The translations under genes and the position numbers were made by a program. DNA of 64,000 nucleotides. Origin: Deltaproteobacteria bacterium (lineage in GTDB: Bacteria > UBA10199 > GCA-002796325 > JACPFF01). The stretch lies in NCBI GenBank assembly GCA_016210045.1, contig JACQUX010000038.1, positions 165,139 to 229,138 of the forward strand, read 5' to 3'. This document shows positions 16,023 to 50,437 of this stretch, piece by piece. Every line of letters begins with the position of its first letter. The stretch's first letter is position 1. The notes under the pieces are model-generated. The model searched no databases and was not told the DNA's origin. It saw nothing but the letters and a program-made list of their open reading frames with translations.

Positions 16023-16082
16023 ATGGGGACAGGTACCTTCAAATGCCCGTAGAGTGGGCATTTGAAGGTACCTGTCCCCACT
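16023..16082. repeat. Palindromic hairpin element, family copy 1 (arms ~GGGGACAGGTACCTTCAAATGCCC); probable bidirectional terminator between convergent genes
   Basis: The sequence gaatggggacaggtaccttcaaatgccc-gtagagtg-gggcatttgaaggtacctgtccccactg lies between the HATPase gene end (16012) and the dapA end (16092). Related copies are at 30718-30790 and 50361-50437. Confidence 0.7.
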
Positions 16083-16091
16083 GCGATTACT

Positions 16092-16970
16092 TTATGGGGC
16101 GAGGAGTTGGGCGGTGCGCAGTACGGCGGCCAGCCGGTCCCGATTGGCGGGGGCCATTGGGGTGAGGGGGAGGCGCCAGGCCTCTTCGCAGCGGCCCATT
16201 AGTGCCAGCGCGGTCTTCACCGGGATCGGGTTGGATTCAATGAATAGGGCTTGATTCAGTGCGTACAGCGCTTGGTGGAGGCGTGCGGCCGTGGCGGTAT
16301 CGCCCCGTTGCCACGCGTTCCACAATTCCGCCACGCGGCGCGGCGCGACGTTCGCAGTGACGGAAATAGCGCCTTGGTACCCGATCGCATAGAGCGGATA
16401 GTTGAGCGCATCTTCGCCGGACAACAACGCGAACGTATCGGACACTGCGGCCCGATGTTCCGTGGCCTGGGTCAGCGAGCCGGAGGCGTCTTTGAGGCCG
16501 ACGATGTTGTTAATGCCCGCCAAGCGCGCGACGGTCGGCGGCAGCAAGTTGACGCCGGTGCGGCCGGGAACGTTGTACAAAATGATCGGCAACGGTGTCG
16601 CGGCGGCCACGGCTTGGAAGTGCTGCGCCAATCCCTCTTGCGTCGGCTTGTTGTAATACGGCGTGACGTGCAGCAGGCCGTCGGCTTTACATTCGGTGCA
16701 GAGCGTGGTCAGTTGCGTGGCCTTTTCGGTGATGTTGGCGCCCGCGCCCGCGATGACCGGCACGCGGCCGCGCGCTTGTGCCACCGTGAATCGCACGACG
16801 CGCGCATATTCTTCCAGCGTCAGCGCCCCGGCCTCTCCGGTCGTCCCACACGGCACGAGGCCATGCACGCCTTCGGTAATCAGCCATTCGACGTGGTCGC
16901 GAAACGCCGCTTCGTCGATCGCATTGCCTTTGAACGGAGTGATGACGGCGGGGAAGATGCCAGTGAACAT
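16092..16970 (-). CDS. dapA: 4-hydroxy-tetrahydrodipicolinate synthase
   Basis: 292 aa containing ...FPAVITPF..., ...GLVPCGTTGE... and the catalytic Lys region ...IVGLKDASG... typical of DapA. Confidence 0.9.
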   Translation of the reverse strand: MFTGIFPAVITPFKGNAIDEAAFRDHVEWLITEGVHGLVPCGTTGEAGALTLEEYARVVRFTVAQARGRVPVIAGAGANITEKATQLTTLCTECKADGLLHVTPYYNKPTQEGLAQHFQAVAAATPLPIILYNVPGRTGVNLLPPTVARLAGINNIVGLKDASGSLTQATEHRAAVSDTFALLSGEDALNYPLYAIGYQGAISVTANVAPRRVAELWNAWQRGDTATAARLHQALYALNQALFIESNPIPVKTALALMGRCEEAWRLPLTPMAPANRDRLAAVLRTAQLLAP

Positions 16971-17003
16971 GAAACGCCCCCTATTTGGTGACTAGTCACC
17001 CCT

Positions 17004-17852
17004 TTACGCACTTACAGGCACACTCCCCGAAAAAACCAATTCGGCCGGACCGGTCAGGTGGAGTTCGTGGGTCTCGCGGTCCCAATTCACCTTCACGGTG
17101 CCGCCCGGCATTTTGACTTCCACGTCGCGTTCGGTGTGGCCGTTCAGGACCGACGCCACGACGACCGCGCAGGCCCCGGTGCCGCAGCCGCGGGTCTCGC
17201 CGGTGCCGCGCTCCCAGACCCGCATTTCGATTTCGTTCGGGCTGACGGTGCGGGCGAATTCGACGTTAATGCGGCGCGGAAAGGCATGATAGGTCTCGAC
17301 CAACGGACCGAATTTGGTCACAGGAAAGTCTTGTGGATTTTCGACGAAAATCACGCAGTGCGGATTGCCGATCCCGCAACAGGTAATGCGCAGTTCGCGC
17401 CCTTCCATCCGCAGCGGGCGATTGATGATCCGGCCGTTCAAGCTGACGCCGATCTCTTTCCCCTTTAATTGGGGGACGCCCATGTTGACGCGATATTGCT
17501 TGCCGATCGGCGTGACGCTGTAAAACCCGCCCAACGTTTCGATGTTGACGCTCTTCTTTTTGACCTCTTTGCGGTCGAACAGATACTTCGCGACGCACCG
17601 AATGCCGTTGCCGCACATCTCGGCCTCGGAGCCGTCGGCATTGAAGGCCTGCATTTTGAAATCGCCGTCTTTGCGGCGCGTCGTGGAGATCAGCAGCATT
17701 TGATCCGCGCCGATGCCGGTGGACCGGTTACAGAGCTGCCGTGCGGTCCGTCCGGGGTGTTGCAGCGTCCAACCGCGCAGGTCGAAGATCACGAAGTCGT
17801 TGCCCGTGGCGTACATCTTGACAAAGGGACGGGCTTGTGAGCGTTGGGCCAT
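17004..17852 (-). CDS. dapF: Diaminopimelate epimerase
   Basis: 282 aa with the N-terminal KMYATGNDFVIFD motif and both catalytic Cys regions (EMCGNGIRC and GCGTGACA). Confidence 0.9.
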   Translation of the reverse strand: MAQRSQARPFVKMYATGNDFVIFDLRGWTLQHPGRTARQLCNRSTGIGADQMLLISTTRRKDGDFKMQAFNADGSEAEMCGNGIRCVAKYLFDRKEVKKKSVNIETLGGFYSVTPIGKQYRVNMGVPQLKGKEIGVSLNGRIINRPLRMEGRELRITCCGIGNPHCVIFVENPQDFPVTKFGPLVETYHAFPRRINVEFARTVSPNEIEMRVWERGTGETRGCGTGACAVVVASVLNGHTERDVEVKMPGGTVKVNWDRETHELHLTGPAELVFSGSVPVSA

Positions 17853-17904
17853 ACTTATCCTTATATTCCTTTATAAAGGACCGGGAGCCGCTTGTAGCAA
17901 TCGC

Positions 17905-18861
17905 ATGGGGGCGCTGTCAAAGAAAATGGGCTTCATTCGTCGGATAATCTGCTGTTTCTTGGCCTGTGCCGTGGGATTTCCCGGATATGCGGCGGCCGCA
18001 GCCGGTCGATTTCGGGTCATGGGGGATGGGGCCCTGACCGGGACGCGGGGGAAGGGAACCGCGACGGTCCGGTATCGCGGTGCCGACGGGCAATACCTGG
18101 CCGAGGGATTACGCACCATCAATAACTTCTTCGGGACCTCCTATGACCGCCCCACCGAGCGGATTGAACTCCGGCTGCTGGAATTGCTCGACGCGGTCCA
18201 AGACCATTTTGGCGGTCGCGCGATCGTGTTGCGATCCGGTTTCCGCAGCCCGTCCGAGAATAATGGCCTGCGGCGACAAGGCAAGCTGGCCGGGCAGTCG
18301 AGCATGCACATCGAGGGAGGCGCGGTGGACTTTCACTTGGCCGGTGTGGCGTCGGCTGAAGTCGCGGCGTATGCCCGCTCGTTGGAAGTGGGCGGCGTGG
18401 GCTATTATCACGGCCGAGAGGTCCACCTCGACACCGGCCCGGTCCGGCAGTGGGACGAACAGACGTCCGGGACCGAGAGTCGGGAGCCGCAGCGGAATGC
18501 CAAGATCATCCTGCAGACCGAATATGACCACTACCGCCCCGGAGAGCCGGTGCGGCTGCGCTGGATGCGGATCACCGAGTTTCCCGTGGCCGTCCCGCTC
18601 CGGGTCACGCTCGAATGTGATCGGGATGGGCGGGCCACGTCGCTGGGAGAGGTGATGCTACAGTACGGCGAAGGGGTGCTGCACCGTAAAGACGGCTGCG
18701 CCGTGCTGGAGACGCGGGCGGCGGCGCGGAGCCCCGTGTGGGTGGCGGCAGTCGGCGACCGGTGTGGGGCCCGGCATCGGCTGCGGGTCCGTTTCTGTGA
18801 ACGGCCGTCGGAAGCGATGCCGGCGGAGGTCACGTCCAATATTTTCCAAATCGATGATTGA
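17905..18861 (+). CDS. DUF882 / peptidase M15A-like (YcbK family) secreted protein
   Basis: Signal peptide, then ...SGFRSPSENNGLRRQG...SSMHIEGGAVDFHLAGV...GGVGYYHGREVHLDTGPVRQW, which matches the metal-binding core of DUF882 / peptidase M15 proteins. The ORF-track N-terminal extension antisense to dapF is rejected. Confidence 0.75.
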   Translation: MGALSKKMGFIRRIICCFLACAVGFPGYAAAAAGRFRVMGDGALTGTRGKGTATVRYRGADGQYLAEGLRTINNFFGTSYDRPTERIELRLLELLDAVQDHFGGRAIVLRSGFRSPSENNGLRRQGKLAGQSSMHIEGGAVDFHLAGVASAEVAAYARSLEVGGVGYYHGREVHLDTGPVRQWDEQTSGTESREPQRNAKIILQTEYDHYRPGEPVRLRWMRITEFPVAVPLRVTLECDRDGRATSLGEVMLQYGEGVLHRKDGCAVLETRAAARSPVWVAAVGDRCGARHRLRVRFCERPSEAMPAEVTSNIFQIDD

Positions 18862-19021
18862 CTATCTCGGCAGCTTACAGCATAACCCCGCCCGAATCTG
18901 AATCTGCAGGCCGCCGCACAGACCACCCCGAATGTAGGAATTTCATAACGCCCGACCGACTACGACCACTGCATGCTGCGCCCTCAACTCACTGACCATT
19001 CCCTTAAGGAGGATCTCCCCC

Positions 19022-20272
19022 ATGCATCTCAATGAACTGAAGCGAATGAAATTCGGCGATCTTGTCGAAATGGCCAACGGCTTCCGGGTCGAAAATGCGG
19101 CGGGCATGCGCAAACAAGATCTGATCTTTGCGCTGCTCCAATCGCAGGCCAGCCAAGATAAGGCGATCTACGGCGAAGGCGTCTTGGAAATCCTTCCCGA
19201 CGGGTTCGGTTTCTTGCGCTCCCCCGATTACAGCTATCTCCCCGGTCCCGACGACATCTATGTCTCGCCGTCGCAAATTCGTCGCTTCAGCCTGCGCACC
19301 GGCGATACGGTCGCAGGGGAAATCCGGCCGCCGAAAGAAGGCGAACGCTACTTCGCATTGCTCAAAGTGGAGACGATCAACTTTGAAAGTCCCGAAAAGG
19401 CGAAGACCAAGCTGCTCTTCGACAACTTGACGCCGCTCTATCCGAACCAACGCTTCAAACTCGAGACCAGCGATCCGGAAAATTACTCGATGCGGATCAT
19501 GGAACTGCTGACGCCGCTCGGCAAAGGGCAGCGCAGCCTGATCGTCTCGCCGCCGCGGGCCGGCAAGACCGTGTTGTTGCAAAATATCGCCAACGCGCTG
19601 ACCGGGAACTTCCCCGAAGTGAAACTGATCGTCCTGTTGATCGACGAACGGCCGGAAGAAGTGACCGACATGCAGCGCTCCGTGAAGGGCGAAGTCGTCA
19701 GTTCCACCTTCGATGAACAGGCCTCGCGGCACGTGCAGGTCGCCGAAATGGTCATCGAAAAGGCGAAGCGGTTAGTGGAACACCAACACGACGTGGTCAT
19801 TTTGCTCGACAGCATCACCCGGCTGGCGCGCGCGTACAACACCGTGGTCCCGCCGTCGGGCAAGATCCTCTCCGGCGGCGTCGACGCCAATGCGTTGCAC
19901 AAACCGAAGCGCTTCTTCGGCGCGGCTCGGAACGTGGAAGAGGGCGGCAGCCTCACCATCATCGGGACCGCGTTGATCGACACCGGGAGCCGGATGGACG
20001 AAGTCATCTTCGAAGAATTCAAGGGCACCGGCAACATGGAAATCCACCTCGATCGCCGGCTGATGGAAAAGCGGATCTTCCCGTGCATGGACATTAATAA
20101 GTCCGGCACGCGGAAGGAAGAACTGCTGCTGGAAGATGGCGTGTTGAAGCGTGTCTGGGTATTGCGCAAACTGTTGCAACCGCTGAATCCGATCGACTCG
20201 ATGGAATTCCTGCTCGATAAAATGGGTCATACGAAGAATAATCGCGAATTCCTGGATAGCATGAACAAGTAG
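19022..20272 (+). CDS. rho: Transcription termination factor Rho
   Basis: 416 aa with an N-terminal RNA-binding (OB) domain, Walker A ([15 protein letters not shown]) and full-length similarity to Rho. A strong RBS (AAGGAGG) follows a ~160 nt leader. Confidence 0.95.
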
Positions 20273-20279
20273 GAGTGGT

Positions 20280-20885
20280 ATGGCAATCACTGCCCTGTGT
20301 CGTTGGCTGAAAGGGTCGACGCGCAAAGTCGGCGCGCCTGCTACAGCGCGTGTGTCGCGTCCTGTGGCGCAGCACTTTGGCACGCTGGAGCGGTTTGCGC
20401 AACGGCCGACGCCGTACCAATTCGGCCGCGACCGAGAGGCGTTGCAGCTTGTCGAGTTGGCGTGGGGCGTTGTTAGCGAGCACGACATGCTCATGAATGC
20501 TCGGCGCACGGCCGGCAAGAATATAGAGTTGATCCGTGATTGTGAGCGGCGTTGGTGTCGTGCGATCCGCAGTTTTGCTGAATATGCGGTCCCTCGTTTC
20601 CCTGACACGATGGCGCGGGTGGCCGTACTCTCATCCTTCCAACAGCAGGGATTTCAAGCGGCATTGCCGTTTGGCGTGTTCGCGATCGCGGCACGGCGTG
20701 GCGACGTCGATTTCGTCGTCAGTGCATATCCGCTCGCGGCCGGGGCGCGCGAAGTACTCGCGATCCGCGCGGGTGGAACGGCGCTGGAAATTCTCGACGA
20801 GGCCGACTTGGAGCCGGAAGCCGATTGGTTGAATGATCTCCTCGGGGCGACCACCCTCGTGGTCGCAGCGCGCGACGCGGCGTAA
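20280..20885 (+). CDS. Hypothetical protein, probably co-transcribed with rho (8 nt downstream)
   Basis: 201 aa ORF with coding-like composition. I recognise no family. Confidence 0.45.
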   Translation: MAITALCRWLKGSTRKVGAPATARVSRPVAQHFGTLERFAQRPTPYQFGRDREALQLVELAWGVVSEHDMLMNARRTAGKNIELIRDCERRWCRAIRSFAEYAVPRFPDTMARVAVLSSFQQQGFQAALPFGVFAIAARRGDVDFVVSAYPLAAGAREVLAIRAGGTALEILDEADLEPEADWLNDLLGATTLVVAARDAA

Positions 20886-20898
20886 AGTCGTCGTGTTG

Positions 20899-21651
20899 TC
20901 ATTTTGGCAACACGACGACTGCATCGGTGATCGCACTCAAATTCGGGATGTGGAGCTGAAAGCGGCCTAAGCGGGTAAAGAGTTGGGCGGAACGGCCACC
21001 GTCCAAGTTGAGCGCCGACCGACAGCCGAGCCCGCCCTGTTTTTCGGTGCGCCGGAACAAATCGGCTAGCGTGGCCGTTTCCATCGGCGCGTGTTCCGTG
21101 ATCGCCACGACAACTTTCCCCTGCGGCGTGATCCCGAGCGCGGAACGGTCATCGGTGCCGGGCCGCAGCGGAGGAAGGGCGCCATCCACCAGCAGGCGCG
21201 GTCCTGCTTGCACGGCCATCGTCGGATTCGTGTCGGGACGAAAATCGCGTTGCGCCACGATGCGTGGTTGATGGCCGTGGATTGCAAAAACACCCCACCA
21301 ACTGGTGTTCTTGAGCGGCGAGCGAATCTTGCCGCCTTGAATCCGGAGCCCCAACGGTTCCAGTTCCGGCGAAAAAAACCCGCCGTTGATCGCGAGCAGT
21401 GCCTTCGAGCGCTCCGCCAATTCGCGGACCGAGGTGCTCTTTTGGGAAAAATCTTTGGCGAGCGCGACGCTGAAGCGATACTTCGCCGGATCGATCCGAA
21501 ACGCGTGGACGTAACTTTCGGTATTGGGTCCCGCCGCCGCGAGCTTGGCATATTCAAACCCCGGCGCGAGCGTCATCCACGTCGTCGGCGCCGCAATCGC
21601 CGGCGTGATACGGAGACAGAAGAGGCAGAGGATGAGTGCTCGAAGGCGCAT
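20899..21651 (-). CDS. Phosphodiester glycosidase family protein (NAGPA-like / DUF2233), secreted
   Basis: Signal peptide plus ...LLAINGGFF... and ...ALNLDGGRSAQL... blocks characteristic of the phosphodiester glycosidase domain. Confidence 0.7.
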   Translation of the reverse strand: MRLRALILCLFCLRITPAIAAPTTWMTLAPGFEYAKLAAAGPNTESYVHAFRIDPAKYRFSVALAKDFSQKSTSVRELAERSKALLAINGGFFSPELEPLGLRIQGGKIRSPLKNTSWWGVFAIHGHQPRIVAQRDFRPDTNPTMAVQAGPRLLVDGALPPLRPGTDDRSALGITPQGKVVVAITEHAPMETATLADLFRRTEKQGGLGCRSALNLDGGRSAQLFTRLGRFQLHIPNLSAITDAVVVLPK

Positions 21652-21660
21652 ATGTTAAGG

Positions 21661-21745
21661 GGTGACTGGTGGCTAGTGGCTGGTGATACGTGGTCCGTTC
21701 CCCAGTCACCAGCCACCAGTCACCAGTCACGATTCACCGCACATC
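21661..21745. repeat. CCAGYCA heptamer array with inverted arms (locus 2 of 4), between convergent genes
   Basis: The sequence gtgactggtggctagtggctggtga...ccagtcaccagccaccagtcaccagtcacg has inverted heptamer blocks able to form a long hairpin. Confidence 0.6.
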
Positions 21746-22789: not shown

Positions 22790-22846
22790 GGGCCGGTCAT
22801 AGAGGGTCGAGCGAGTGGGGTCAAGGGGGAGAGGGGGCTTTTGTGC

Positions 22847-29002: not shown

Positions 29003-29493
29003 TCTCTACGGATCCACGACCGGCAGCCAGCGGTCCAATTCGCCGAGGCGGTCTTCCACTGGGGGCTGGCAAGTATACTCCGTCGTCCGGTGAGCGCGAC
29101 GGTGGCGGACGCGGATGCCGCGCTGTTGCTCCGGCCGCTCGCCCTCGCCGTTGTAATCGGAAAAGAGTTCGTACGTGTAATCGCCGTTGTCGAACGCGAC
29201 CGTGAGATACGTCACTTGATACCGCGTATAGCGCGAAAGTCGGAAATGGGCCGACGGCGTTCCGTGGGCAGTGGGAAACGTGAGTTCCAAATGTCCCAAC
29301 TTGCCGAAGCGATATTGCAACGCCGTCAGCGATTCCCGCTGCCGCGTGCCACAGAGCGCCACGACCTTTCCGCTCCCGACGATCGTGCAACTGAAATACG
29401 TCGCCTCCGGCGGACGGCACCAGGTATCGACACTGGCGGCGTGGAGTAGTGAGGGCGGGAGCGACAAGCAAAATGCCAGTGTCAGGTTACGCA
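29003..29493 (-). CDS. Hypothetical secreted protein
   Basis: Starts MRNLTLAFCLSLPPSLLHAAS (signal peptide). The ATG lies 3 nt after the MFS gene stop. No family recognised. Confidence 0.5.
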
Positions 29494-30707
29494 TGTTCCC
29501 TCTTACGAGCCGATGCGTTTGCAGTGGCATCGGCGTGTCCCCACGCCCGATACCCATACATGCACAATCCGCACGCCACCACGCCGGTTGTGCCGCAGAG
29601 TACCCAGCAGGGGCCGAAGCCAAACCAGTCGAGCAATAGGCCGGCACCGAGCGGGCCCACCATGGCCCCAGCTGCGGAGACGGCGTGGGAGATGCCAAAA
29701 AGCCGGCCGCGAAGGTGACGCGGGGATTGTAATGTGATCAACTGATACAGCACTGCTGCGGCCAGCGCCTCGCCGATCGTGACGACGGCCTCGGCCGCCA
29801 AGAGTCCCGGCAGTGTGCGAGCTATGGCAAACAGTGCGGTCCCGGCACCCAGCACGAGCGTGCCGAGGCCGGTGCCGATGAACGGATGCCAGCGACTGAG
29901 CCACGCCGTGAGCGGATATGCGAGGATGATGATCCCGATCGCGTTCCACGAGACGGTCACGCCGTAGACCCAGGTTGGCAGTGCCAACTGCTGATGGATG
30001 TAAAGCGGCAACACGGAGAAGCCGAGGACCATCGGAATCATAAACAGCAGTTCGACCAACATCACGAGCGCGAAACGCCCGACGAAAAACGTTTCCTGGT
30101 CGTCGCGTGCCGTGTCTTCGGTGCTTGTTGTCGACGGCGCATTCCAAATCAACCGCCAGGCGATCGCCCAACAACCCGCCAGCGCCACCGCATTCCACGC
30201 AAAGAGCCACTCGAAGCCCCAGGCCAGCAGCGCGCTGCCGAGCAACGGGGCGATCAAAAAACCGATGTTGATCATCGTGTGATGCAGGCTGAAGGCCTTC
30301 GTCAACTGAGGTCCGGCCATATAATGAGTCAGCAGCGTCGAGGAGGGTGGCCGGACGAGTTCAATACAGACGCCGCAAGCAAAGACGGATGCCACGAGCC
30401 ACGCGACCGAGTGTGCCCGCAACAGCGCGAGAATGGTGACGACACCGCCGGCGTAACTGAGCAGGATGAGCCGCCGGCATCCCCAACGGTCGACCGCGTA
30501 GCCGCCCAATACCGTGGCGAGGATCGAGCCGGCCCCGTAGATGCCCATCGTTTTGGTCGCCTGCGCCGCCGTGAAGTGGAAGCGTTCCGCCAGATACAAG
30601 GCGAGAAACGGAATCACCATCGCCCCGGCCCGAGAAAGGGCCGTCGTCGTGAAGATCCCCAGCACCGGGCCAGGATAGGAACGCAGCAATGTCAGCAAAG
30701 CGCGCAT
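29487..30707 (-). CDS. MFS transporter
   Basis: 406 aa with 12 predicted TM segments and MFS-like loop motifs (GxxxDRxGxR). Confidence 0.85.
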   Translation of the reverse strand: MRALLTLLRSYPGPVLGIFTTTALSRAGAMVIPFLALYLAERFHFTAAQATKTMGIYGAGSILATVLGGYAVDRWGCRRLILLSYAGGVVTILALLRAHSVAWLVASVFACGVCIELVRPPSSTLLTHYMAGPQLTKAFSLHHTMINIGFLIAPLLGSALLAWGFEWLFAWNAVALAGCWAIAWRLIWNAPSTTSTEDTARDDQETFFVGRFALVMLVELLFMIPMVLGFSVLPLYIHQQLALPTWVYGVTVSWNAIGIIILAYPLTAWLSRWHPFIGTGLGTLVLGAGTALFAIARTLPGLLAAEAVVTIGEALAAAVLYQLITLQSPRHLRGRLFGISHAVSAAGAMVGPLGAGLLLDWFGFGPCWVLCGTTGVVACGLCMYGYRAWGHADATANASARKREHA

Positions 30708-30717
30708 ACGTTACATT

Positions 30718-30790
30718 CATCCGAGTGGGGACAGGTACCTTGCGATCGTTATTTTTCGCGCATTGGAAGGTACCTGTCCCCACTCGGATG
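30718..30790. repeat. Palindromic hairpin element, family copy 2 (arms CATCCGAGTGGGGACAGGTACCTT)
   Basis: The sequence catccgagtggggacaggtacctt-gcgatcgttatttttcgcgcattgg-aaggtacctgtccccactcggatg lies in the divergent region between the MFS gene and the lytic transglycosylase gene. Confidence 0.7.
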
Positions 30791-30899: not shown

Positions 30900-31505
30900 A
30901 TGTCTCGTACCCCGCGTCCTCGGATTCGTTGGTCCATTGGGCTGGCGTTGCTGCTGATCGGTGGCGGCGTGAACTTGTGGCCCGCCCCGACGGCCGTCCG
31001 CTTGGTGGCCCGCGCCGTGCCGTGGGAGGCGGTTGCCGTCACGCGGGGCCGTCCCGCGCTGGGAAAGCGAGTCCAGTTCCGCGGCATCCCCCGCTTGGCG
31101 CAGCACCCGCTGGCGCCGATTATCATCGCGGCCGCAGAGCGGTATCAGCTTGATCCGGCGATCATTGCGGCCATCATTCATGTCGAGTCGGGATTCAATC
31201 CGTTAGCGCGTTCTCCGAAAGGCGCGATGGGGCTGATGCAACTGATGCCGCAGACCGCGGGGCGACTCGGGGTCGAAACGCCGTATGATCCGGCCACGAA
31301 CGTCTTTGCCGGGGCCCGCTACTTCCGCCAAATGCTCAACCGCTTTCATGGCGATTATCTGCTGGCGCTCGCCGCGTACAACGCCGGGCCCGGTGCCGTC
31401 GAACAGCACGGCGGTATTCCTCCGTACGCCGAAACCGTCCAATATGTGCCGAAAGTGATCCGCTACTATCGCCAATACGCGGCCCTCGCGCGTCCCGCCG
31501 GCTAA
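30900..31505 (+). CDS. Lytic transglycosylase (SLT domain) protein
   Basis: Contains ...IHVESGFNPLARSPKGAMGLMQLMPQTA... and ...AYNAGPGAV..., the SLT catalytic Glu region and family motifs. N-terminal signal/TM. Confidence 0.8.
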   Translation: MSRTPRPRIRWSIGLALLLIGGGVNLWPAPTAVRLVARAVPWEAVAVTRGRPALGKRVQFRGIPRLAQHPLAPIIIAAAERYQLDPAIIAAIIHVESGFNPLARSPKGAMGLMQLMPQTAGRLGVETPYDPATNVFAGARYFRQMLNRFHGDYLLALAAYNAGPGAVEQHGGIPPYAETVQYVPKVIRYYRQYAALARPAG

Positions 31506-37953: not shown

Positions 37954-40900
37954 CGTCGAAGTAGCGCGCGGCGGGATGGTGCACGATCAAGGCCGACGTG
38001 CTGGCTTCCGGATCCATTTGGAACGTCTCGCTGAGACTGACGCCGATCCGTTCCGGTTGCAGCAATTCAAACAGCAGCGCCTGATCCTCTAAATTCGGAC
38101 ACGCGGGATATCCGAAACTGTACCGACTCCCTTGATACCCTTGGTGATACAGTCCCTCGATCGTTGTCGCGTCGGCTCCCGTAATGCCAAGTTCCACGCG
38201 GATTGCCCGGTGCCAATATTCCGCCAACGCCTCCGCCGTTTCGACCGAAAGCCCGTGGAGATAGAGGTAATCCGTGTAATTGCCCGCTTCGTAATACTGC
38301 TGACACACGGCCTTCGCGCGCGCGCCGATCGTGACCACATGCAGCCCGATCACGTCCATCGTGCCCGCATCGAGCGGCCGGAAGAAATCCGCAATGCAGT
38401 GATACGGCTCTCGCGGCTGCCGCGGAAACGTAAACAGCACGCGCTCTTGCCGCGTCTCCGGATCCAACACGATCACGTCATTGCCCACCGCGCCACAGGG
38501 GAAATATCCGTACACCACCTGCGGCGCGAAAATCCCCTCCCGCTCCACGCGTCCCGTCAACTCGCGAAAGATCGGTTCAATTTTTTCCCGCACCAGCGCT
38601 TCATACTCCGCCTTCCGCATCTGCCCCTGCCGAAACTGCCACTGCCCCTTGAACAACGCCGTCCGATTAATCAACGGCCACAGTTGCCCCACAGCAATAT
38701 CCCCCACCACCCGCGTCCCCCAAAACGGCGGCGTAGGGATTGAAGCCGCCATCTTAATGGCAGAGCGCCTGCCTCGTCCCCCCAATAAAGTGGAGGATTG
38801 CGATGCAGCCGGAGACGGGATGGGGTCCGCGGGGGGGACTTGCGGAGCCCGCTGCAACGATGTTGTTGATACCGCAGCGGGCGAGCATGAGCGCGGCTGC
38901 GGCGCGTAAGCCGCAGCCGACGCGTGCCCCCCCGCGGACCCCATCCCGTCTCCGGCTGCCACCTTGCATTCCGAAACGACCGCTTCCATCACCCGCAACC
39001 CCTCGAACGCATCTTTACCATAATACACCGCCCGCCCATACGCGCTCGCCAAGTCGCTCTCCACAAAGCGCCGCGTCAACGCCGCCCCGCCGCAGATCAC
39101 TGGGATCGCCAGGCCGCGGTGCGACATCTCTTCCAAGTTTTCCTTCATGATCGCCGTCGACTTCACCAGCAAGCCCGACATCCCGATCGCGTGCGCCGCA
39201 TGCTGTTCCGCCGCCGCCAACATCTGTTCCAACGGGACTTTAATGCCGAGATTGTAGACCGTGTAGCCGTTGTTGGTCAGGATGATATCGACCAAGTTCT
39301 TTCCGATGTCATGCACGTCGCCTTTTACCGTTGCCAACACGATCTTCCCCTTCGATTGGCCCTCGACCCGCTCCATGTGCGGTTCCAGGAATGTCACTGC
39401 GGCTTTCATGACTTCCGCCGACTGGAGCACAAACGGGAGTTGCATCTTGCCGGCGCCGAACAACTCGCCCACGACTTTCATCCCGTCGAGCAGGATCGTG
39501 TTGATAATTTCGAGCGGCGCGTAGCGCCCCATTGCCTCGCGGAGCAACGGTTCCAAGTCGGTGCGGCGTCCGTTGATGATCCGTTGTTTCAACCGTTCTT
39601 CGAGCGGTGCGGCGCGATCCTCCGCTTCGCTGGGACCCGTCTCCAAACGGTTCGTCTGAAAATAGGCCATGAACGCCGTGAGCGGATCGCCTTGGCTGCG
39701 GTCGTTGTGCACCAGCCGCTGCGCCAACTGGAGTGCCGCATCGGGGATTCGGTTGAGCGGCAAGATCTTCGCGGCGTGGACAATGGCGGCGTCGAGCCCG
39801 GCCTCGACAGCGGCGTGCAAGAAGACGCTGTTCAACACGACGCGGGCCGCCGGATCGAGGCCGAACGAAATATTGCTGACGCCCAAGACCGTGCGCACGC
39901 CGGGCAATGTGGCCTTGACTTGGCGAATTCCGGCAAGCGTCTGGACGCCGGCATCATGAAATTCAGCGTCGCCGCTGCCGAGCGTGAACGTCAGCGTGTC
40001 GAACAACAGATCTTCCGGCTTCAGGCCGTATTCTTCCACACAGAGGCGATAGATCCGTTGCGCAATGGCGACTTTTTGTTCCGCGCGCTTCGCCATCCCT
40101 TGTTCGTCGATGGTCAGCGCAATCACGCCGGCGCCGAAGCGCCGCGCCAGTTCCAAGACACGCCGCGCGCGCGCGTCGCCGTCTTCCAAGTTGATCGAGT
40201 TGATCAGGCAGCGTCCGCCGGCGAGCGCGAGCGCGTGCTCCAACACCGGGAGCTCGGTGGTGTCGATCACGAGTGGCAGCGGAACTTGCGTGACATAGCG
40301 GCGGATCGTTTCCGTCATATCGCGCACTTCGTCGCGGCCCACGTACGCTACGCAAACGTCGAGCGCGTGACAGCCTTCGGCGACTTGTTCTTTCGCCATC
40401 TCGACCAGGCCATCCCAATCGTCGCGTTGCAATAAGTCGCGGAATTTTTTCGACCCGTTCGCATTGGTCCGCTCGCCGATCAGAAACGGCCGCGGCTCTT
40501 GGTCGAGCGCTTGCGCGGTGTACATGCTGCTCACCGCGGGCGTCCATTCCACCGTGCGGGCGTTGGGCGCTCGTCCGGCCAGCGCGATGGAGAGTGCGCG
40601 GATATGTTCGTCGGTCGTCCCGCAGCAGCCGCCAACTGCGGCGACGCCGTAATGCTCGACGAAATACGTCTGCCACTGGACGAATTCCTCCGGCGTGAGG
40701 CGGTAATGGGCGTGGCCGCCGACATTTTCCGGCAGTCCGGCGTTTGGATTGATCACGATCGGGACGGGACAGTGTTGACTTAAATGGCGGACGTTGTCTT
40801 CCATCTCCTTCGGACCGGTCGCGCAGTTCATTCCGAAGAGATCGATGCCATACGGCAGCAATGCCGTGCAGGCCGCGCCGATTTCGGTGCCGATCAACAT

Positions 40901-41618: not shown

Positions 41619-42056
41619 TCACAGCGGATTAATGACGTGCAGCTTCGGGATGCGGCGGAATTCCGTGTCGCGTGTGAAGATCGTGTCGATGCCGTGTTCG
41701 CGCATGATCGCCGCAATCCGGCAGTCGTGGACAAAACTTCCGCGCACGGCGCCGACGTCCTGCAAGATCGCTTGCAGCGTCGTCCAATATCCTTCGCCTT
41801 CGGTGAGGAGGCGCAATGTCGGGAGCGCCAACAATGACGTCACGTTGGCGCACGCCTCCTGAAGAGAGAAGAGGGGCGGCGCGCCGCCGAACGACTGGGT
41901 CACGAAGGCGAGATATTCGCCGATGTTGATCCATGTGATGGCGTATGAAGATCGGTCCTGTGCCACTTGATCCAGGAATGCACGGGCCGCCCGATGCTCC
42001 GGCGCGGCCTCACTCGAGGCGTAAATGAGGATGTTCGTGTCGATCAGGCCGTGCAC
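41619..42056 (-). CDS. vapC: Type II toxin-antitoxin system toxin, PIN domain (VapC family)
   Basis: The N-terminus MHGLIDTNILIY is the PIN-domain motif with acidic residues. 145 aa. Confidence 0.85.
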   Translation of the reverse strand: MHGLIDTNILIYASSEAAPEHRAARAFLDQVAQDRSSYAITWINIGEYLAFVTQSFGGAPPLFSLQEACANVTSLLALPTLRLLTEGEGYWTTLQAILQDVGAVRGSFVHDCRIAAIMREHGIDTIFTRDTEFRRIPKLHVINPL

Positions 42057-42307
42057 GGCAGTGGTCGCTCCAAATCAGGGAGATACGAAGTGCGATCCGC
42101 AGGGTCGATGCCGGCCGGAAGCGGACGTTTGCTCGTGTGCCACGTGGCCAGCCGGGCGGCCGCCGTATGCCGCCGCTCCGTGCGCGCCTCCAAGCCGCCG
42201 CGAATGAGTTCCACCACAAGGTGTTTCAATCGTCGGCCCTCGCTCACGCACAGCCGTTTGAGGGTGCGCAACAACTGGTCGTCCATTTCGATGGTGGTTC
42301 GATGCAT
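42044..42307 (-). CDS. vapB: Type II antitoxin (VapB-like)
   Basis: Small ORF (MHRTTIEMDDQLLRTLKR...) overlapping the vapC start, the typical arrangement. Confidence 0.7.
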   Translation of the reverse strand: MHRTTIEMDDQLLRTLKRLCVSEGRRLKHLVVELIRGGLEARTERRHTAAARLATWHTSKRPLPAGIDPADRTSYLPDLERPLPCTA

Positions 42308-42331
42308 CGTCAAAAATGATAAAATGTTCCA

Positions 42332-45300: not shown

Positions 45301-45757
45301 CCTCGAGCCGCGCCATGCGCTGACGGGCGTGTATGAAGAACTCGTCGCGACCGGGTCGGCGCCGTTAGCGAAGGTGCAGATCGACGAATATACCGTCACA
45401 TTGGCGCTCGTGGCCGTGCAGTTAGGCCACACCGTGGAGGCGGAACAGTTAATCCACAAAGTGGGTCCGCATATTCGCGACAATGAAAAGACGTGGCTGT
45501 GGGGACTGTGCGGCCGGGTCGAGGCGTTGATCGCCGCGGCGCGGGAGGAGTGGGAACCGATGGAACGGTCGTTTGCGGAGAGCGTGCTGCGGTTTCAAAA
45601 ACTCGGCGCGCTGTACGACGCGTATCAGACCTATCGCGGTTGGTGGCGGGCGTTGAAGCAGCGAGGATTGGGAGAAACGCCGACCGGGGCAACGGTCCAG
45701 CAAGCGCTGGCGCAGCTGGCGGTTTCGGTGGGTGTGCCGGGGGAGGGACGGGGATGA
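42332..45757 (+). CDS. Adenylate/guanylate cyclase (class III) fused to STAND-type AAA ATPase and TPR/helical repeats
   Basis: Cyclase domain motifs (VTILFLDIVGYTRL..., ...KYVGDAIMALFG...). Walker A (VVGEAGVGKSALL). A long C-terminal helical repeat region. 1141 aa. Confidence 0.85.
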   Translation: MNVSICENLPIAPPLGAWHNGRVIEKSLNLGHLAEDFAKLLVDVPGESLPEDTIQLEEGERREVTILFLDIVGYTRLAEQLDPEQLKFVISNTLQVFTNQIKRCGGTVEKYVGDAIMALFGRSEAHEDDSRRAVAAARAILERLEDINSILAQKGINISCRIGVNRGLIVTGQMGEHDTVTGEAINIAQRLEANAPSNGILVSDSVFAECQAYYDCQALPPLHVKNKTEPVIVYLVSDEKAGGDRVMIRHEGTFAGREGERSTLRAVWERAAQGQMGLVQVVGEAGVGKSALLQAVMQEMRSETLRAATVYFKADSFGLTPYHVLSDLVREYLAGHVTSLEDFIAAIPDAALRDGLGAYRLYLTDILGLPLGEDDRQRLSRMDPRARQAETNLALKRFIEAAVATERVRGALPLVIAVDNFQWVTHASREALSQIIQTLPSESAVLWLMAGRSGDAAPWLSAQLGATVLQLTPLPFEAAATLIRARFPERVLGDEFCRRLFLRSGGNALFLNELVGELRHDSDLSDVSFAERLPSSIKALVLSRLDRLPRPEKFALQLGALAGREFSEDLLRHVLRRAMYDYDATQLIERLCAANFLARSDHGVTIAQPMLTEVAYSTILYANRRKLHATVAQWVEDNRPDISIYAAYLAEQWERAEEYAKAYHYYADAGHSARRRYAQREAATFLEKALKFRSAANATPDQLAEVYGHLVGAFEALGDQEKWQLYLKEGLQYAPPESRMHFRFRLSAIEVEQRYGDRAKAKERLAVFLADAAVQANAEVHLRALLTASNFANDQGADDTAFIGTALALRPKIQDVDLQEKLDHCVFNHYKNADELTQAEQYLMRLLDAAQTDFRRHLCDLFYCSFAWDRGVDFAAIMTRALAAQNYWREVGWVRGVGWGAFYRGAALWRMSRYTEARQVFIEGVKELERARDQFMLGKLELVLAAIHLFSGDQVNYQVRKNRILTHAQQTSESEWLALRREFAMFEGQCLEPRHALTGVYEELVATGSAPLAKVQIDEYTVTLALVAVQLGHTVEAEQLIHKVGPHIRDNEKTWLWGLCGRVEALIAAAREEWEPMERSFAESVLRFQKLGALYDAYQTYRGWWRALKQRGLGETPTGATVQQALAQLAVSVGVPGEGRG

Positions 45758-46431
45758 CCGACATGCACGACGTGATGATCACGCTTTTTTCGGGACTCGA
45801 CGCGGCCGCATTGGCCGGCGTGCGCCAGCGGGCGGAGCCGCGCGACTTCGACGGTAACGTGGCGATCATTCGCGAAGGGGAGCCGGGCGATGCGCTGTAT
45901 ATTATTGTGCAAGGGACAGTGGCCATCATTAAACATGCGGCGAGCGGACGCGGCGACTTGCTGGGCATTTTGGGGCGCGGTGAATACGTCGGCGAGATGG
46001 CGCTGCTGACCGTTGCGCCACGCTCGGCCTCGGTCATCACGTTGGAGCCGGTCAAGACGTTGGCGATCAGTCACGCCCATTTCGGGCAATTCGTCGAACA
46101 ATTCCCCGGCGCCGGGGCGCAGATTTTCCGGACCTTTGCAACGACGCTGAGCGCCCGGTTGCAGCGCGTGACGGAAAAATTGGGGGAACTCTTGACCCCG
46201 ACCGCCGCGCGGGCCTCGCAGGCTGCGTCCGTGGACGCGAGTATCAGCCAGCCCGATGCCGAACTCTCGACGCCGGCTGCGGTGCTGAAAGGCACTGTGG
46301 ATCTGTTGTCCCAAACGGCCTTGACGCCGGAACGGCGGCAGGAATTCTTGCGCACGATGACGATTCAAGCGGAACGCTTGGTCGGTCTGTTGCGCACGGC
46401 GAACGGATTGAGTCATGAACAGACGCAGTAA
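45754..46431 (+). CDS. Cyclic-nucleotide-binding domain protein (CAP/CRP-type cNMP-binding fold) with C-terminal helical extension
   Basis: Contains ...GEPGDALYIIVQGTVAI...GEYVGEMALL...PRSASVITL..., the conserved Gly/Glu/Arg-Ser-Ala phosphate-binding cassette of cNMP-binding domains. ATGA overlap with the cyclase gene. Confidence 0.8.
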   Translation: MTDMHDVMITLFSGLDAAALAGVRQRAEPRDFDGNVAIIREGEPGDALYIIVQGTVAIIKHAASGRGDLLGILGRGEYVGEMALLTVAPRSASVITLEPVKTLAISHAHFGQFVEQFPGAGAQIFRTFATTLSARLQRVTEKLGELLTPTAARASQAASVDASISQPDAELSTPAAVLKGTVDLLSQTALTPERRQEFLRTMTIQAERLVGLLRTANGLSHEQTQ

Positions 46432-46849
46432 CTGCGGCGTGATCATCCTGTTGGCGCTAGCGGCGTGCAGTGCCGTGGGCTGCCGCGATTCGCGCTACTA
46501 CGGAACGGTCGAAGATTTGGTCTTCGATTCGGTGCCGGAAAAACACGACTTGATGACACAAACCATTAGTGGATTTGTGACTTGCCCGACCTGTCCGCCG
46601 GATACCTCCAGTATGTTGATCGAAGTGCGTGGTCCGCAATTATTGACCGCAGAGCCGTTAGTGAGTGAACCCTTCGCGCGGGTCGGGGCCTACGAAGTCA
46701 CCGTGAAGGTGCGGCCCGGCGAACCTCTCGTCGTCGAAGCGACCATCTTTACCAGCGGCGGGCTCCGCAACGTCTCACAAGAAGTCATGGCCATCGCCGA
46801 CGCCCCCGATGGGACCGCGAGTATGACGGTGAATTTGCGCGTGGAATGA
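46415..46849 (+). CDS. Hypothetical lipoprotein
   Basis: Signal peptide with lipobox (LALAACSAVGC). 144 aa. No family recognised. Confidence 0.5.
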   Translation: MNRRSNCGVIILLALAACSAVGCRDSRYYGTVEDLVFDSVPEKHDLMTQTISGFVTCPTCPPDTSSMLIEVRGPQLLTAEPLVSEPFARVGAYEVTVKVRPGEPLVVEATIFTSGGLRNVSQEVMAIADAPDGTASMTVNLRVE

Positions 46850-46850
46850 G

Positions 46851-46960
46851 TGGCTGGTAAGCGGCGCGCATAGCACACGTTGTTCCCAGCCACCAGTCAC
46901 GAGTCACCAGCCACCGCTTTTCCCAGTCACCAGTCACTAGCCACCAGTCACGCATCTAAA
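46851..46960. repeat. CCAGYCA heptamer tandem array (locus 3 of 4)
   Basis: The array cccagccaccagtcacgagtcaccagccaccgcttttcccagtcaccagtcactagccaccagtcacg lies between convergent genes, preceded by an inverted block gtggctggt. Confidence 0.6.
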
Positions 46961-49148
46961 ACTCCGTCACTTCCACCGGTGTAGTTTGCGGGGGCAGTTG
47001 ATAGCCGGGGTTGATGCCGATGCCGAGTTGTCCCGAGCTTGGATCGCCCCACGCCCAGACAGTGCCGTCGTTCTTGAGCGCCAAACTGTGGCGCATTCCC
47101 GCCGCGACGGCGATCACGCGGTCCAAATTCACGGTCGTGGGGTCGCAAGAGGTCCGGTCGATCGTCGTGCCGTCGCCCAGTTGCCCATTGTCGTTCTCGC
47201 CCCACGCGAAGACGCGGCCGCTCGCATCGATCGCCAAGAAATGGTTGCTATTGGCGCCTAAGCCGGCATCCACGATATTCGACAATGCAGTGACCTGGCG
47301 TGGGCCGGTGTTCCATTCGTTCTCCACGTCGCAATAGCTGCCGCCCCAGACCCAAAGTGTGCCGTCGCGTTTGACGGCCAACGAGACGCCGCTGCCTGCG
47401 GCAATGTCGACGACATCGGAGATCCCGGGGATTTGGGTGGGAGTTGGGACGTAGCGGTCGTCGGGAGACGAATTCGAATCATACGGCGTAATCTCGCCAT
47501 TCACGGACCATCCCCACCCCCACACCGTGCCGTCGCTGCGCAGTGCCAGATTATGAAACGATCCCGCTGCGAGTGTGACGACGTTTGACAGCGAGCCGAT
47601 GAGTACCGGGGTCAAGCGGTCGGTCGTCGTGCCATCCCCCAATTGTCCGGTGCCGTTATCGCCCCAGGCCCAGATCGTGCCGTCGTTGCGCAGCGCAATG
47701 TTGTGACTGTCGCCCGCGCCGACAGTAATGATATTGCTGAGCGACGAAACTTGGATCGGCGTCGGGCTATAGGTCGTGGTCCCGTTGCCGAGTTGCCCCG
47801 AACGATTACTCCCCCACGTCCAGACCGTGCCGTCGCGTGCCCGCGCCACGGCGTGTTGCGGCCCGGCGCTTAGCTGAGTCGCTGCGATGTTCACCACGGC
47901 TGGCGTGAAGACGTTGGTCTGTCCTTCGCCCGTGCCGAGCGTATATTCCACGCCATCATCCACCGCCCACCGGATATAATTGTTGCCCCATCCGTACACG
48001 GTCCCATCGACATCCAACGTGTACGAAGTCACGTTGCCAGCAAAGACGCCGACGAATCCGGTCGACGCGGCAGTGGTCGATGCCAACGTGACGTCATCGT
48101 CCGCCGCACGACCTGGGACGGCGAGCAGCTCTTGGGCGGTGCATCCGCTGGCCGCGCTACCAGCCAGCGTAACGCAGCTTTGCGACGCGCTTTCTCCGTC
48201 GACCGTGTAGGTTGTGTAAAGTTTGCCCGAGGCCGGGGTCCAAGTGGCCGTGAATTCGACATCCGCTTCGGCGCCGAAGTCCGCGTGCGTCCCGAGCACT
48301 GCGGCCTGTACCACGGTGTCGCTGGCCGCGGTCTTGTCGCGGGCGATCGACTGTGACGAGCCCGCCGTTTCGGTCAAGTACGCGTGCGACGTCTCCACGT
48401 CGAACCCGGTGAGATCGGGGAGCGACGTCGACCAATACAGCTCGAGTTGTCGGCTAGTCGTCGCTTGCTGATCCCAGACGCCGCTCAGCACGTAGGTTTC
48501 CACCCCGCGGATCTGCGCGTCTTCGTTGGTGCCGGTGTTGTGCGTCCCGAAGAGGCGGAAACAGCCGGCCCCTTGTCCGGTGTCGTCTTCGGCCGGCAGC
48601 GCGGTGAATTTCCCGACGAAGACGCGGCGATTGTTCACATACAGCCGGACACACATCGGCAGTTCGCCCGCATTGCCCGAACAACTGGCGGAGCAATCGA
48701 CGGTCGAGATCTGTTGATTGGACAGCGCGGGAAACGTGAAGGACGAAAAGTCGAGTCGGTAACTGCTGCCACCTGCCGTCGTGCCGGTGGTCGCGGTCGT
48801 CGCGGTGTTATTTTCGACTTCGATGCCGCTGAGCAACAGCAGCAGCGCGTCTAATCGATCGCTCGCATCGTCGACAAATGAGAGCGCCCGTTCCGGCGCC
48901 CCGCTGCCAGAGAGTGCCTTCGCCGACTTGGCCGCGCTGACACTGCTGCTGCTCGAGCTCACCGTGCCGACGCCGACGCCTAAACTATTAGGGAACGAGA
49001 AGTTGCCGGTGGCGGACGGCAGTTCAATCGGAATCGGCGTGCTGGTTCCTCCGCCGGTCGGGACCCCGGCGCCGCCACAGGCGGCCACGCCGATACACAG
49101 CATCAAGACAGAGATACACCGCCAACACACCTGGGACGGTTTTCGCAT
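46956..49148 (-). CDS. Secreted/lipoprotein RCC1-repeat (regulator of chromosome condensation-like beta-propeller) protein
   Basis: The C-terminal half is seven consecutive ~50 aa repeats of the form ...HxxALxxDGTVWxWGxNxxGQLGxG.... The N-terminus is a signal/lipobox (MLCIGVAACGGAG), then a Thr/Ser-rich region. Confidence 0.8.
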   Translation of the reverse strand: MRKPSQVCWRCISVLMLCIGVAACGGAGVPTGGGTSTPIPIELPSATGNFSFPNSLGVGVGTVSSSSSSVSAAKSAKALSGSGAPERALSFVDDASDRLDALLLLLSGIEVENNTATTATTGTTAGGSSYRLDFSSFTFPALSNQQISTVDCSASCSGNAGELPMCVRLYVNNRRVFVGKFTALPAEDDTGQGAGCFRLFGTHNTGTNEDAQIRGVETYVLSGVWDQQATTSRQLELYWSTSLPDLTGFDVETSHAYLTETAGSSQSIARDKTAASDTVVQAAVLGTHADFGAEADVEFTATWTPASGKLYTTYTVDGESASQSCVTLAGSAASGCTAQELLAVPGRAADDDVTLASTTAASTGFVGVFAGNVTSYTLDVDGTVYGWGNNYIRWAVDDGVEYTLGTGEGQTNVFTPAVVNIAATQLSAGPQHAVARARDGTVWTWGSNRSGQLGNGTTTYSPTPIQVSSLSNIITVGAGDSHNIALRNDGTIWAWGDNGTGQLGDGTTTDRLTPVLIGSLSNVVTLAAGSFHNLALRSDGTVWGWGWSVNGEITPYDSNSSPDDRYVPTPTQIPGISDVVDIAAGSGVSLAVKRDGTLWVWGGSYCDVENEWNTGPRQVTALSNIVDAGLGANSNHFLAIDASGRVFAWGENDNGQLGDGTTIDRTSCDPTTVNLDRVIAVAAGMRHSLALKNDGTVWAWGDPSSGQLGIGINPGYQLPPQTTPVEVTEF

Positions 49149-49290
49149 ATCGTCATGGAAGAGCAAAGGACATGCCGCAGCCCCTCGATGCCAACGCGTC
49201 AATATCGCAACGCTTTTATCCGGCGTATCCGTCCGCCCGGGTAGGCGTTCACCACAAAATCCTCGAAATGAATGAGAATGCACTCATACG

Positions 49291-49380
49291 GCAGTGACTG
49301 GTGGCTAGTGGCTGGGAAATGGGACTCACTTGCTCCGTTCCCCCGCCACCAGTCACACCTTTCCCAGCCACCGCTTTACA
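49291..49380. repeat. CCAGYCA heptamer array with inverted arms (locus 4 of 4), in a divergent promoter region
   Basis: The sequence is cagtgactggtggctagtggctgg...ccgccaccagtcacacctttcccagccaccg. Confidence 0.6.
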
Positions 49381-49413
49381 CCGCCCCGCAGATCGACTAG
49401 CCCTCGCGGACCT

Positions 49414-50358
49414 ATGCAACCGAGCTTGTGGCAACGCCTGCGCTATGCGCCGTGGTTTGTGCAGTTGGTGGTGATCCGCCGCTGCAATTTGAGCTGCGGG
49501 TATTGCAACGAATTCGACAAGACCTCCGCGCCGGTCCCGTTGGACCTCTTGAAAGCGCGCGTGGATCGGATCAAAGATTTGGGCTCGTTCGGGATCTGTT
49601 TCACCGGCGGCGAACCGACGTTGCACCCCGATCTGCCGGCACTCATTCATTACGCCCGCTATGAACGGCGTTTTCTCCGCACCGGGATGATCTCGAACGG
49701 CACCTATCTGACGCCGAAGTTGATCCAGGCGCTGAACGAGGCCGGACTGCAGGAATTGCAAATCTCGATCGACGGTGTGCAACGCAACGAAACGACCGAA
49801 AAGGTGTTGAACAATTTGCGCAAACGCTTGGAGGCGCTCCGCGAACACGCCACGTTTAATGTTACGGTCTCCGGGGTCGTCGGCGCGTGTCCGCCGGAGG
49901 AGAGTTTCGAAGTCATCGCGTATGCGAAACAGATGGGTTTTCGTCCGCGCGTGTTACTGGTGCACGGCGCTGACGGACAGATTCGGCTGACGGCAGAGCA
50001 GTTGCAAGCGTATCACGAAATCCAAAAGAGTATCGGCCGGCATCTGTTCGAACCGTCGGCGTATCGGCATCGCTTGATCACCACGGGCCGCGCGCCGTTC
50101 AAGTGCCGCGCCGGAAGCCGCTATTTGTACGTCAACGAATTCGGGATGGTGCATTGGTGTTCGCAGACCAAGCAATATTTCGGCAAGCCGTTGGCCGAGT
50201 ATACGTTCGACGATTTGAAGCAACAATTCCACACCCCGAAATCCTGCGCCGATCGCTGCACGCTCGGCTGCGTCCGCTCCGCCAGCGCGTTCGATGAATG
50301 GCGCGGCCAAACGGCACTCGCTACGCAAGCGCCCGCCGCGGCCTCCAACTCCCGCTAG
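49414..50358 (+). CDS. Radical SAM protein, possibly with a C-terminal auxiliary Cys cluster
   Basis: CNLSCGYC (CxxxCxxC) sits near the N-terminus after the start MQPSLWQRLRY.... GGEPTL glycine-rich SAM motif. C-terminal cysteines: C..C....WC and CADRCTLGC. The ORF-track upstream extension is encoded by the heptamer repeat and is rejected. Confidence 0.75.
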   Translation: MQPSLWQRLRYAPWFVQLVVIRRCNLSCGYCNEFDKTSAPVPLDLLKARVDRIKDLGSFGICFTGGEPTLHPDLPALIHYARYERRFLRTGMISNGTYLTPKLIQALNEAGLQELQISIDGVQRNETTEKVLNNLRKRLEALREHATFNVTVSGVVGACPPEESFEVIAYAKQMGFRPRVLLVHGADGQIRLTAEQLQAYHEIQKSIGRHLFEPSAYRHRLITTGRAPFKCRAGSRYLYVNEFGMVHWCSQTKQYFGKPLAEYTFDDLKQQFHTPKSCADRCTLGCVRSASAFDEWRGQTALATQAPAAASNSR

Positions 50359-50360
50359 AA

Positions 50361-50437
50361 TACATCCGAGTGGGGACAGGTACCTTCAAACGCTGTATTG
50401 ACAATGGTTTGAAGGTACCTGTCCCCACTCGGATGTA
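50361..50437. repeat. Palindromic hairpin element, family copy 3 (perfect 31 bp arms TACATCCGAGTGGGGACAGGTACCTTCAAAC); likely bidirectional terminator
   Basis: The sequence tacatccgagtggggacaggtaccttcaaac-gctgtattgacaatg-gtttgaaggtacctgtccccactcggatgta lies between convergent radical SAM and DedA genes. Confidence 0.75.

Follow-up and report, generated by a model that had tools for sequence, protein, structure and literature searches.

What kind of element turns up three times, as a long hairpin built on one and the same arm sequence, in short gaps between the genes of an uncultured "Deltaproteobacteria" metagenome-assembled genome (MAG)? The question is raised by a stretch of 64,000 nucleotides of Deltaproteobacteria bacterium (assembly GCA_016210045.1, contig JACQUX010000038.1, positions 165,139 to 229,138 of the forward strand; the whole of this stretch is called the window here), and we think that the answer is probably a REPIN-type element, that is, non-autonomous mobile DNA made of doublets of a repetitive extragenic palindromic (REP) core, in this case the core of a widespread clade of REP-associated tyrosine transposases (RAYTs). 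The basis for saying so is threefold: the anatomy of the three copies, the occurrence of their core beside RAYT genes of other genomes, and the presence or absence of the element at one orthologous site. A matching RAYT would then be encoded in the window genome now, or have been encoded there formerly, and the way in which the elements might move is taken from analogy with known systems. The REP/REPIN class itself is of course already known, and it is the window family that is newly placed in it.

An earlier note on this DNA had described long hairpins on a single arm sequence at 16023-16082, 30718-30790 and 50361-50437, and the sequence is indeed as described, with six copies of the arm. The 16-mer TGGGGACAGGTACCTT is found exactly in all six arm copies of the 64-kb window, where chance would be expected to give none, and the longer 19-mer GAGTGGGGACAGGTACCTT, allowed up to three mismatches, has six matches that form three inverted pairs, against no match at all in 100 dinucleotide-preserving shuffles of the window. 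The three loci align without a gap across 103 columns and define a unit of 73 bp, within which the starts of the two 16-mers are separated by 41 nt, and the spacer between them measures 25 nt, in every one of the three copies. As delimited by an inverted-repeat finder, the arms of copies 1, 2 and 3 run to 41 nt (83% complementary), 29 nt (93%) and 33 nt (100%), and as single-stranded DNA the copies fold at -32.8, -33.2 and -41.4 kcal/mol (z-scores from -11.5 to -16). In copy 1 the outer arms have decayed (CATTTGAA compared with CATCCGAG), so that this copy looks older.

The loops of the hairpins had been described as unrelated and as 8, 25 and 15 nt long; the first half of that description stands, for the spacer sequences do differ, while the second half does not, since the length is fixed at 25 nt and the spacing is not variable. 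The apparent loops differ because the copy-specific spacers, unrelated in sequence as they are, are each palindromic internally but to unequal depth: 9 bp in copy 1 (CAAATGCCC with GGGCATTTG), about 4 bp in copy 2 and 5 bp in copy 3 (CAAAC with GTTTG), for which the probability by chance is about 1e-3 at 5 bp and about 4e-6 at 9 bp. Palindromy in spacers that are not conserved means that what counts is single-strand folding or else some palindrome-generating process. Inverted doublets that form hairpins, an extragenic position, a fixed distance between cores and a spacer that retains its length and its pairing are all structural features of a REPIN. At the boundaries of the units things are plainer: the flanking tetranucleotides on either side read ACTT and ACTT, CATT and GAAT, and AATA and TATT for the three copies in the alignment, and a consistent target-site duplication was sought there and not found, although three copies give little power. 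Neither GTAG nor CGTC stands at the palindrome boundary in the alignment of the three copies, the ends reading CATCCGAG...CTCGGATG, and at the gathering threshold the Rfam covariance models match neither the window nor, for 18 other loci, the core.

The core is by no means peculiar to this organism. A scan for the 16-mer, which covered one genome per species, gave at least 120 genome loci, with at least 132 exact matches among those listed; of the 132 listed, 30 are accompanied by an inverted partner no more than 110 nt away and 34 by a local flanking inverted repeat of 5 bp or longer, with eight in both sets. In Bacillaceae (Paucisalibacillus globulus, Rossellomorea, Pontibacillus, Halalkalibacter), in Clostridia, in Syntrophomonas and Peptococcaceae MAGs and in Collinsella, short inverted repeats that are specific to the lineage enclose the core, for example GGGACA/TGTCCC, GAGCCA/TGGCTC and CCACCACAA/TTGTGGTGG; instead of such a local stem, or besides it, the core pairs with an inverted second copy 9-52 nt away. 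Paucisalibacillus globulus, the Bacillota MAG OH_CBrB_215 and Collinsella are among the genomes with many copies. Head-to-tail arrays of the core with a period of about 32 nt (TGGGGACAGGTACCTTGGCTCAATTTGACCAC) can also be seen, at positions 5595-5765 of one locus (L062) and in four others (L064, L073, L102 and L107), in the Bacillota MAG OH_CBrB_215 and a Ruminiclostridium MAG, and the L062 array sits directly 3' of a RAYT gene. An association with group II introns was considered and rejected: an intron 3' end (RF00029, L007 19-91, Paucisalibacillus globulus) is followed by a core hairpin about 110 nt downstream, and this single case is probably a coincidence.

The neighbours of the core in these genomes bear on the REPIN reading. 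In all eight RAYT genes of the NF047646 clade that we examined, and at one RAYT fragment, a core lies within about 200 nt of a gene end, mostly within 60 nt. For example, one gene of 276 amino acids (L071) is bracketed by GGGGACAGGTACCT, on the plus strand upstream and on the minus strand downstream, and therefore in inverted orientation; it scores 94.1 bits against the NCBIfam model NF047646 REP_Tyr_transpos (cut-off 80) and 3.9e-18 against Pfam Y1_Tnp, and its protein stays below the cut-off of the IS200 model (24.2 bits vs 55). Bracketing cores are also found at three paralogs in Sporomusa sp. KB1 (L133), in Lutispora (L134) and at the four loci of the protein P0101 (L135-138), whose contigs come from four samples, and in all of these GGGACAa-GGGGACAGGTnnCT-TGTCCC stands about 45-60 nt ahead of the start codon and a reverse-complement core about 8 nt past the stop. 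The core further adjoins RAYT genes in L062 and L114 and the RAYT fragment in L017, and the pair of flanking cores is mutually inverted at most of the RAYT loci that we examined. The clade is a large one: homologs number 3540 at E <=1e-10, many of them labelled 'REP element-mobilizing transposase RayT' by their sources, and a profile search returned 3564 clade representatives (at the 50% identity level) at E <=1e-30. On the flanks of a more divergent RAYT, P0388 (L143), which shares about 42% identity with the Firmicutes clade, stands a variant core, GGGGACGGAG, so that the core tracks the enzyme lineage, as expected of a recognition sequence. Beside the Sporomusa paralogs we made a separate observation, namely that between 3300 and 9900 of their locus (VLKC01000002.1) the three core-bracketed RAYT genes alternate with toxin/immunity cassettes (Colicin-DNase/WHH, SUKH/SMI1), downstream of a filamentous-haemagglutinin-type gene, which has the look of a polymorphic-toxin locus with RAYT units interspersed.

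Is there any sign that the window elements have moved? The comparison that we can offer is of one orthologous site, the junction of dapA with a histidine kinase gene, where the window holds 79 bp between the two stop codons, 73 bp of which are copy 1, leaving 6 bp without the unit. The synteny dapF-dapA-kinase is conserved in two relatives, L141 (72% DapA identity) and L142 (69%), in which the junction is a gap of 15 bp and an overlap of the genes, respectively, and the core is absent throughout the 13.6 and 20.9 kb of these stretches. A closer relative (L139, 84%) does carry the element after dapA, with an offset unlike that of the window: the GGGG of the element begins 17 nt past the conserved ...AAVLRT codons, vs 33 nt in the window, and the dapA stop codon falls within the outer arm CATCTGAGC. 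This difference in offset indicates either an independent insertion or later reshaping. The more distant relatives being empty and the closer one occupied, the site shows an insertion polymorphism, which is evidence of mobility. The earlier note had preferred a REP-like element with a possible link to IS200/IS605-type (Y1/HUH) transposases, and both the emptiness of this site in the more distant relatives and the bracketing of RAYT genes by the core elsewhere bear that proposal out.

How well do the units agree with systems that have been described? REPINs were defined as two inverted, invariant 16-mers at a fixed distance (71 bp for the GI type), with compensatory changes being common and the same sequences flanking RAYT genes (Bertels and Rainey, 2011, PMC3116915). 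With the REPINs of Pseudomonas fluorescens SBW25 the window units share the inverted invariant 16-mers, the fixed distance, the less conserved spacer that keeps length and pairing, the extragenic position and a core identical to RAYT flanks, which for the window core is seen in other genomes; they differ from them in being shorter (41 vs 71 nt between 16-mer starts) and in an unrelated core sequence, and whereas each SBW25 REP is a small palindrome itself, the window cores have no local stem. The E. coli REPs and bacterial interspersed mosaic elements (BIMEs) with their RayT (TnpA-REP, YafM) are likewise short extragenic palindromic repeats with a Y1 HUH transposase-like gene between inverted copies, but the REP superfamilies tagged with GTAG or CGTC bear this tetranucleotide at one palindrome end (Di Nocera, 2013, PMC3733652), and the window units lack the tag, have far longer and perfect arms, and share a core that is cross-phylum rather than species-specific. 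The ends of IS200/IS605 elements (IS608, ISDra2) are subterminal hairpins recognised as single-stranded DNA by a Y1 transposase, with no target duplication, much as the REPIN reading would have it, and the core-associated enzyme matches Pfam Y1_Tnp; unlike those insertion sequences, however, the window units are free of genes, the associated proteins pass the RAYT model and fail the IS200 model, and the flanking cores are mostly inverted instead of having the same orientation.

By analogy with IS200/IS605 and the E. coli RayT, we can imagine that the unit would fold into its hairpin on single-stranded DNA, for example on the lagging-strand template, and that a RAYT (a Y1 HUH enzyme) whose gene lies in another part of the genome would recognise the core within the folded structure, cut the unit and re-insert it into short intergenic DNA without a target-site duplication. 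The core would be conserved because the enzyme recognises it, and the spacer would have to be of suitable length and able to pair, nothing more. Any effects on neighbouring genes would be secondary: at the two convergent sites the hairpins might protect mRNA 3' ends, and at the divergent one the hairpin might occlude the 5' leader of the major facilitator superfamily (MFS) gene.

Several observations weigh against the REPIN reading. The core at RAYT flanks is mostly held within a short local stem-loop (GGGACA...TGTCCC), while the window copies have no local stem and pair solely as doublets. All contigs on which the RAYT clade with the exact core was seen are low in GC and Bacillota-like, and a composition filter found none of the approximately 380 RAYT homologs inspected to have the GC-rich amino-acid composition expected for the window organism; the best high-GC candidate is P0388, on a contig of 53% GC, but there the core is the variant one. 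The window, in whose 64 kb only three copies are seen, holds no RAYT gene by tblastn or by a search of its six-frame translation with the hidden Markov model of the clade, and the exact 18-mer gave 10 matches, mostly coding or chance, in a metagenome collection in which the window lineage is not represented. In addition, one of the empty-site relatives (L141, 7990-9000) has, just upstream of dapF, a Y1_Tnp/RAYT-like gene, on either side of which stand repeats of about 65 nt, equal in orientation and made up of CACGTG-containing hairpins (CATCCAAACCACGTGACAAAATCACGTGG...). As this relative carries a different RAYT with different flanks, the resident RAYT of the lineage may not belong to the matching clade. 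The flanking repeats in question start with CATCC, as does the window element.

Might the hairpins instead be there primarily for the host, as RNA elements (bidirectional intrinsic terminators or stabilisers of mRNA 3' ends) kept for a need at these very positions? They are certainly very stable, two of the three lie only 3-4 nt past a stop codon at convergent gene ends, and REPs in E. coli stabilise the mRNA upstream of them. We nevertheless consider this explanation unlikely. No T-tract follows any of the three long hairpins on either strand, a reason to reject intrinsic terminators as such, and the sole terminator-like match near copy 2, which moreover lies in a 5' region, is a stem of six pairs within one arm. 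The dapA/kinase junction of relatives is without the hairpin and, because their convergent genes lie about 15 bp apart or overlap, there was no ancestral terminator at this site, so that the bidirectional terminator role put forward in the earlier note is not upheld. Nor would host need explain why an invariant 16-mer is common to the RAYT flanks of other phyla, and a mobile element may all the same have a role in RNA secondarily.

Another possibility is that the units descend from a DDE-type insertion sequence as miniature inverted-repeat transposable elements (MITEs), their arms of 24-33 nt being terminal inverted repeats that a trans-acting transposase binds as duplex. The long terminal inverted repeats, the uniform 73 bp, the intergenic position and the presence or absence at one orthologous site would all suit such an origin, and in being small non-coding repeats with inverted ends, intergenic and near gene ends, the units do resemble known bacterial MITEs (Correia/NEMIS, RUP, bcr1). 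From these they part company in having no target-site duplication that is consistent among the three copies, in interiors that are unrelated from copy to copy, which deletion derivatives of one insertion sequence would not predict, and in a core that adjoins genes for Y1 (HUH) tyrosine enzymes, not DDE transposases, at eight of the eight genes examined; a DDE origin is thus quite unlikely in our view. The third idea, that the units are operators of a dimeric or tetrameric regulator, with inverted 16-bp half-sites whose centres are 41 bp (about four helical turns) apart, had been argued against in the earlier note on the ground of a variable loop, an argument that cannot be used, since the distance between the half-sites does not vary among the three copies. 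In spite of this strict spacing, of the 8-bp palindrome AGGTACCT inside every half-site and of the position of copy 2 in a divergent promoter region, operators remain very unlikely, given that two of the three copies lie between convergent stop codons without an obvious target there, that the non-conserved spacers are palindromic (9 and 5 bp), pointing to strand folding over duplex binding, that the neighbouring genes are functionally unrelated, that the site is missing at the orthologous locus of relatives and that in other genomes the core goes with RAYT genes.

Returning to the REPIN reading, what would it mean? To our knowledge, REP and REPIN elements and RAYT enzymes have been studied nearly exclusively in Gammaproteobacteria, and here an identical core of 14-16 nt is common to an uncultured "Deltaproteobacteria" MAG, many Bacillota and Collinsella. 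That identity, which points to the recognition determinant of a large, uncharacterised RAYT clade, is mildly surprising; it would argue for horizontal spread of REPIN-RAYT systems if borne out by full genomes, and it allows horizontal and vertical spread to be tested against each other. A core common to several phyla is compatible with the broad RAYT group, found across 21 bacterial classes including Clostridia and with signs of horizontal transfer, that was reported by Bertels et al. (2017, PMC5581495). A literature search for the core sequence itself brought up unrelated primer matches only, and the papers on REP classes that were consulted do not mention the core. We would go one step further only tentatively: the core GGGGACAGGTACCT and its RAYT clade may form a single horizontally spreading REPIN system in at least four distant lineages, with arms and spacer length re-tailored in each, or else the window copies persist, still perfect, without a resident RAYT. 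The lineages concerned would be Bacillota, Coriobacteriia (Collinsella) and the "Deltaproteobacteria" MAG, and probably also Anaerolineae, Omnitrophota and Thermoanaerobaculia. If true, such spread would contrast with the prevailing view of REPIN-RAYT systems as lineage-specific residents that are inherited vertically. On the practical side, the hairpins can be annotated as REPIN-type rather than as terminators or operators.

All three copies are extragenic, in short gaps between genes with Pfam support (Table 1), and gene calls agree with the earlier description of two hairpins between convergent genes and one in a divergent region. Copies 1 and 3 start 3-4 nt past the stop codon of the preceding gene, while copy 2 lies 109 nt upstream of the SLT transglycosylase gene and, on its other side, only 10 nt (30708-30717) upstream of the called ATG of the MFS gene, so that the element makes up most of the region where a ribosome-binding site would be expected. 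No clear Shine-Dalgarno motif was seen ahead of the MFS start codon, and the hairpin may influence MFS expression.

Table 1. Coordinates in the window of the three elements, their 16-mer cores and the adjoining genes
Feature	Position	Strand	Remark
Element copy 1	16016-16088		73-bp unit; perfect 26-bp stem, 16024-16049 with 16055-16080; outer arms decayed
Core TGGGGACAGGTACCTT, left arm of copy 1	16024-16039	+	Invariant 16-mer, exact match
Core, right arm of copy 1	16065-16080	-	Invariant 16-mer, exact match
Element copy 2	30718-30790		73-bp unit, CATCCGAG...CTCGGATG; outer stem perfect, 24 bp
Core, left arm of copy 2	30726-30741	+	Invariant 16-mer, exact match
Core, right arm of copy 2	30767-30782	-	Invariant 16-mer, exact match
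Element copy 3	50363-50435		73-bp unit; perfect palindrome reaches 50359-50439 (33-nt arms)
Core, left arm of copy 3	50371-50386	+	Invariant 16-mer, exact match
Core, right arm of copy 3	50412-50427	-	Invariant 16-mer, exact match
Histidine kinase gene	14609-16012	+	Convergent neighbour of copy 1
dapA	16092-16970	-	Convergent neighbour of copy 1
MFS gene	29487-30707	-	Divergent neighbour of copy 2
SLT transglycosylase gene	30900-31505	+	Divergent neighbour of copy 2
Radical-SAM gene	49330-50358	+	Convergent neighbour of copy 3, stop codon side
VTT/DedA gene	50451-51161	-	Convergent neighbour of copy 3, stop codon side

The elements may also have left a trace in assemblies. In four of four samples the short-read (Logan) contigs with the SLT gene have their start 1 nt outside element 2 (L146-L149), and those bearing the kinase gene or dapA break off within element 1 or at it (the ends of L121, L122, L139 and L140). 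For the radical-SAM protein beside copy 3 an exact look-up returned no record, and the comparison between samples covers elements 1 and 2. Such ends are what a multi-copy repeat would produce, and its repeat nature offers a reason for short-read assemblies to break there, although this is suggestive only.

There are, finally, other repeats in the window. No clustered regularly interspaced short palindromic repeat (CRISPR) arrays are among them, this candidate having been rejected with none found in the window. A second family, of about 145 bp, is present at 12967-13110 and 59687-59835 and also at 13285-13415 and 38805-38959, with GC-rich arms of about 30 nt that stand 84-89 nt apart; the interiors at 12967 and 59687 are nearly identical, the other two members have the same architecture and a divergent sequence, and the whole looks like another MITE- or REPIN-like family. 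The inverted-repeat finder also reports overlapping inverted repeats of GTGACTGGTGGCTAGTGGCTGGTGA-type units at 21661-21730, and at 63507-63633 there is a nested palindrome of about 127 bp, whose inner arms are a GC-rich 27-nt pair and whose outer arm (TGGGGACCTTGAAGAATGCCCCAGATGC, paired with its complement) is vaguely similar to the arm of copy 1.

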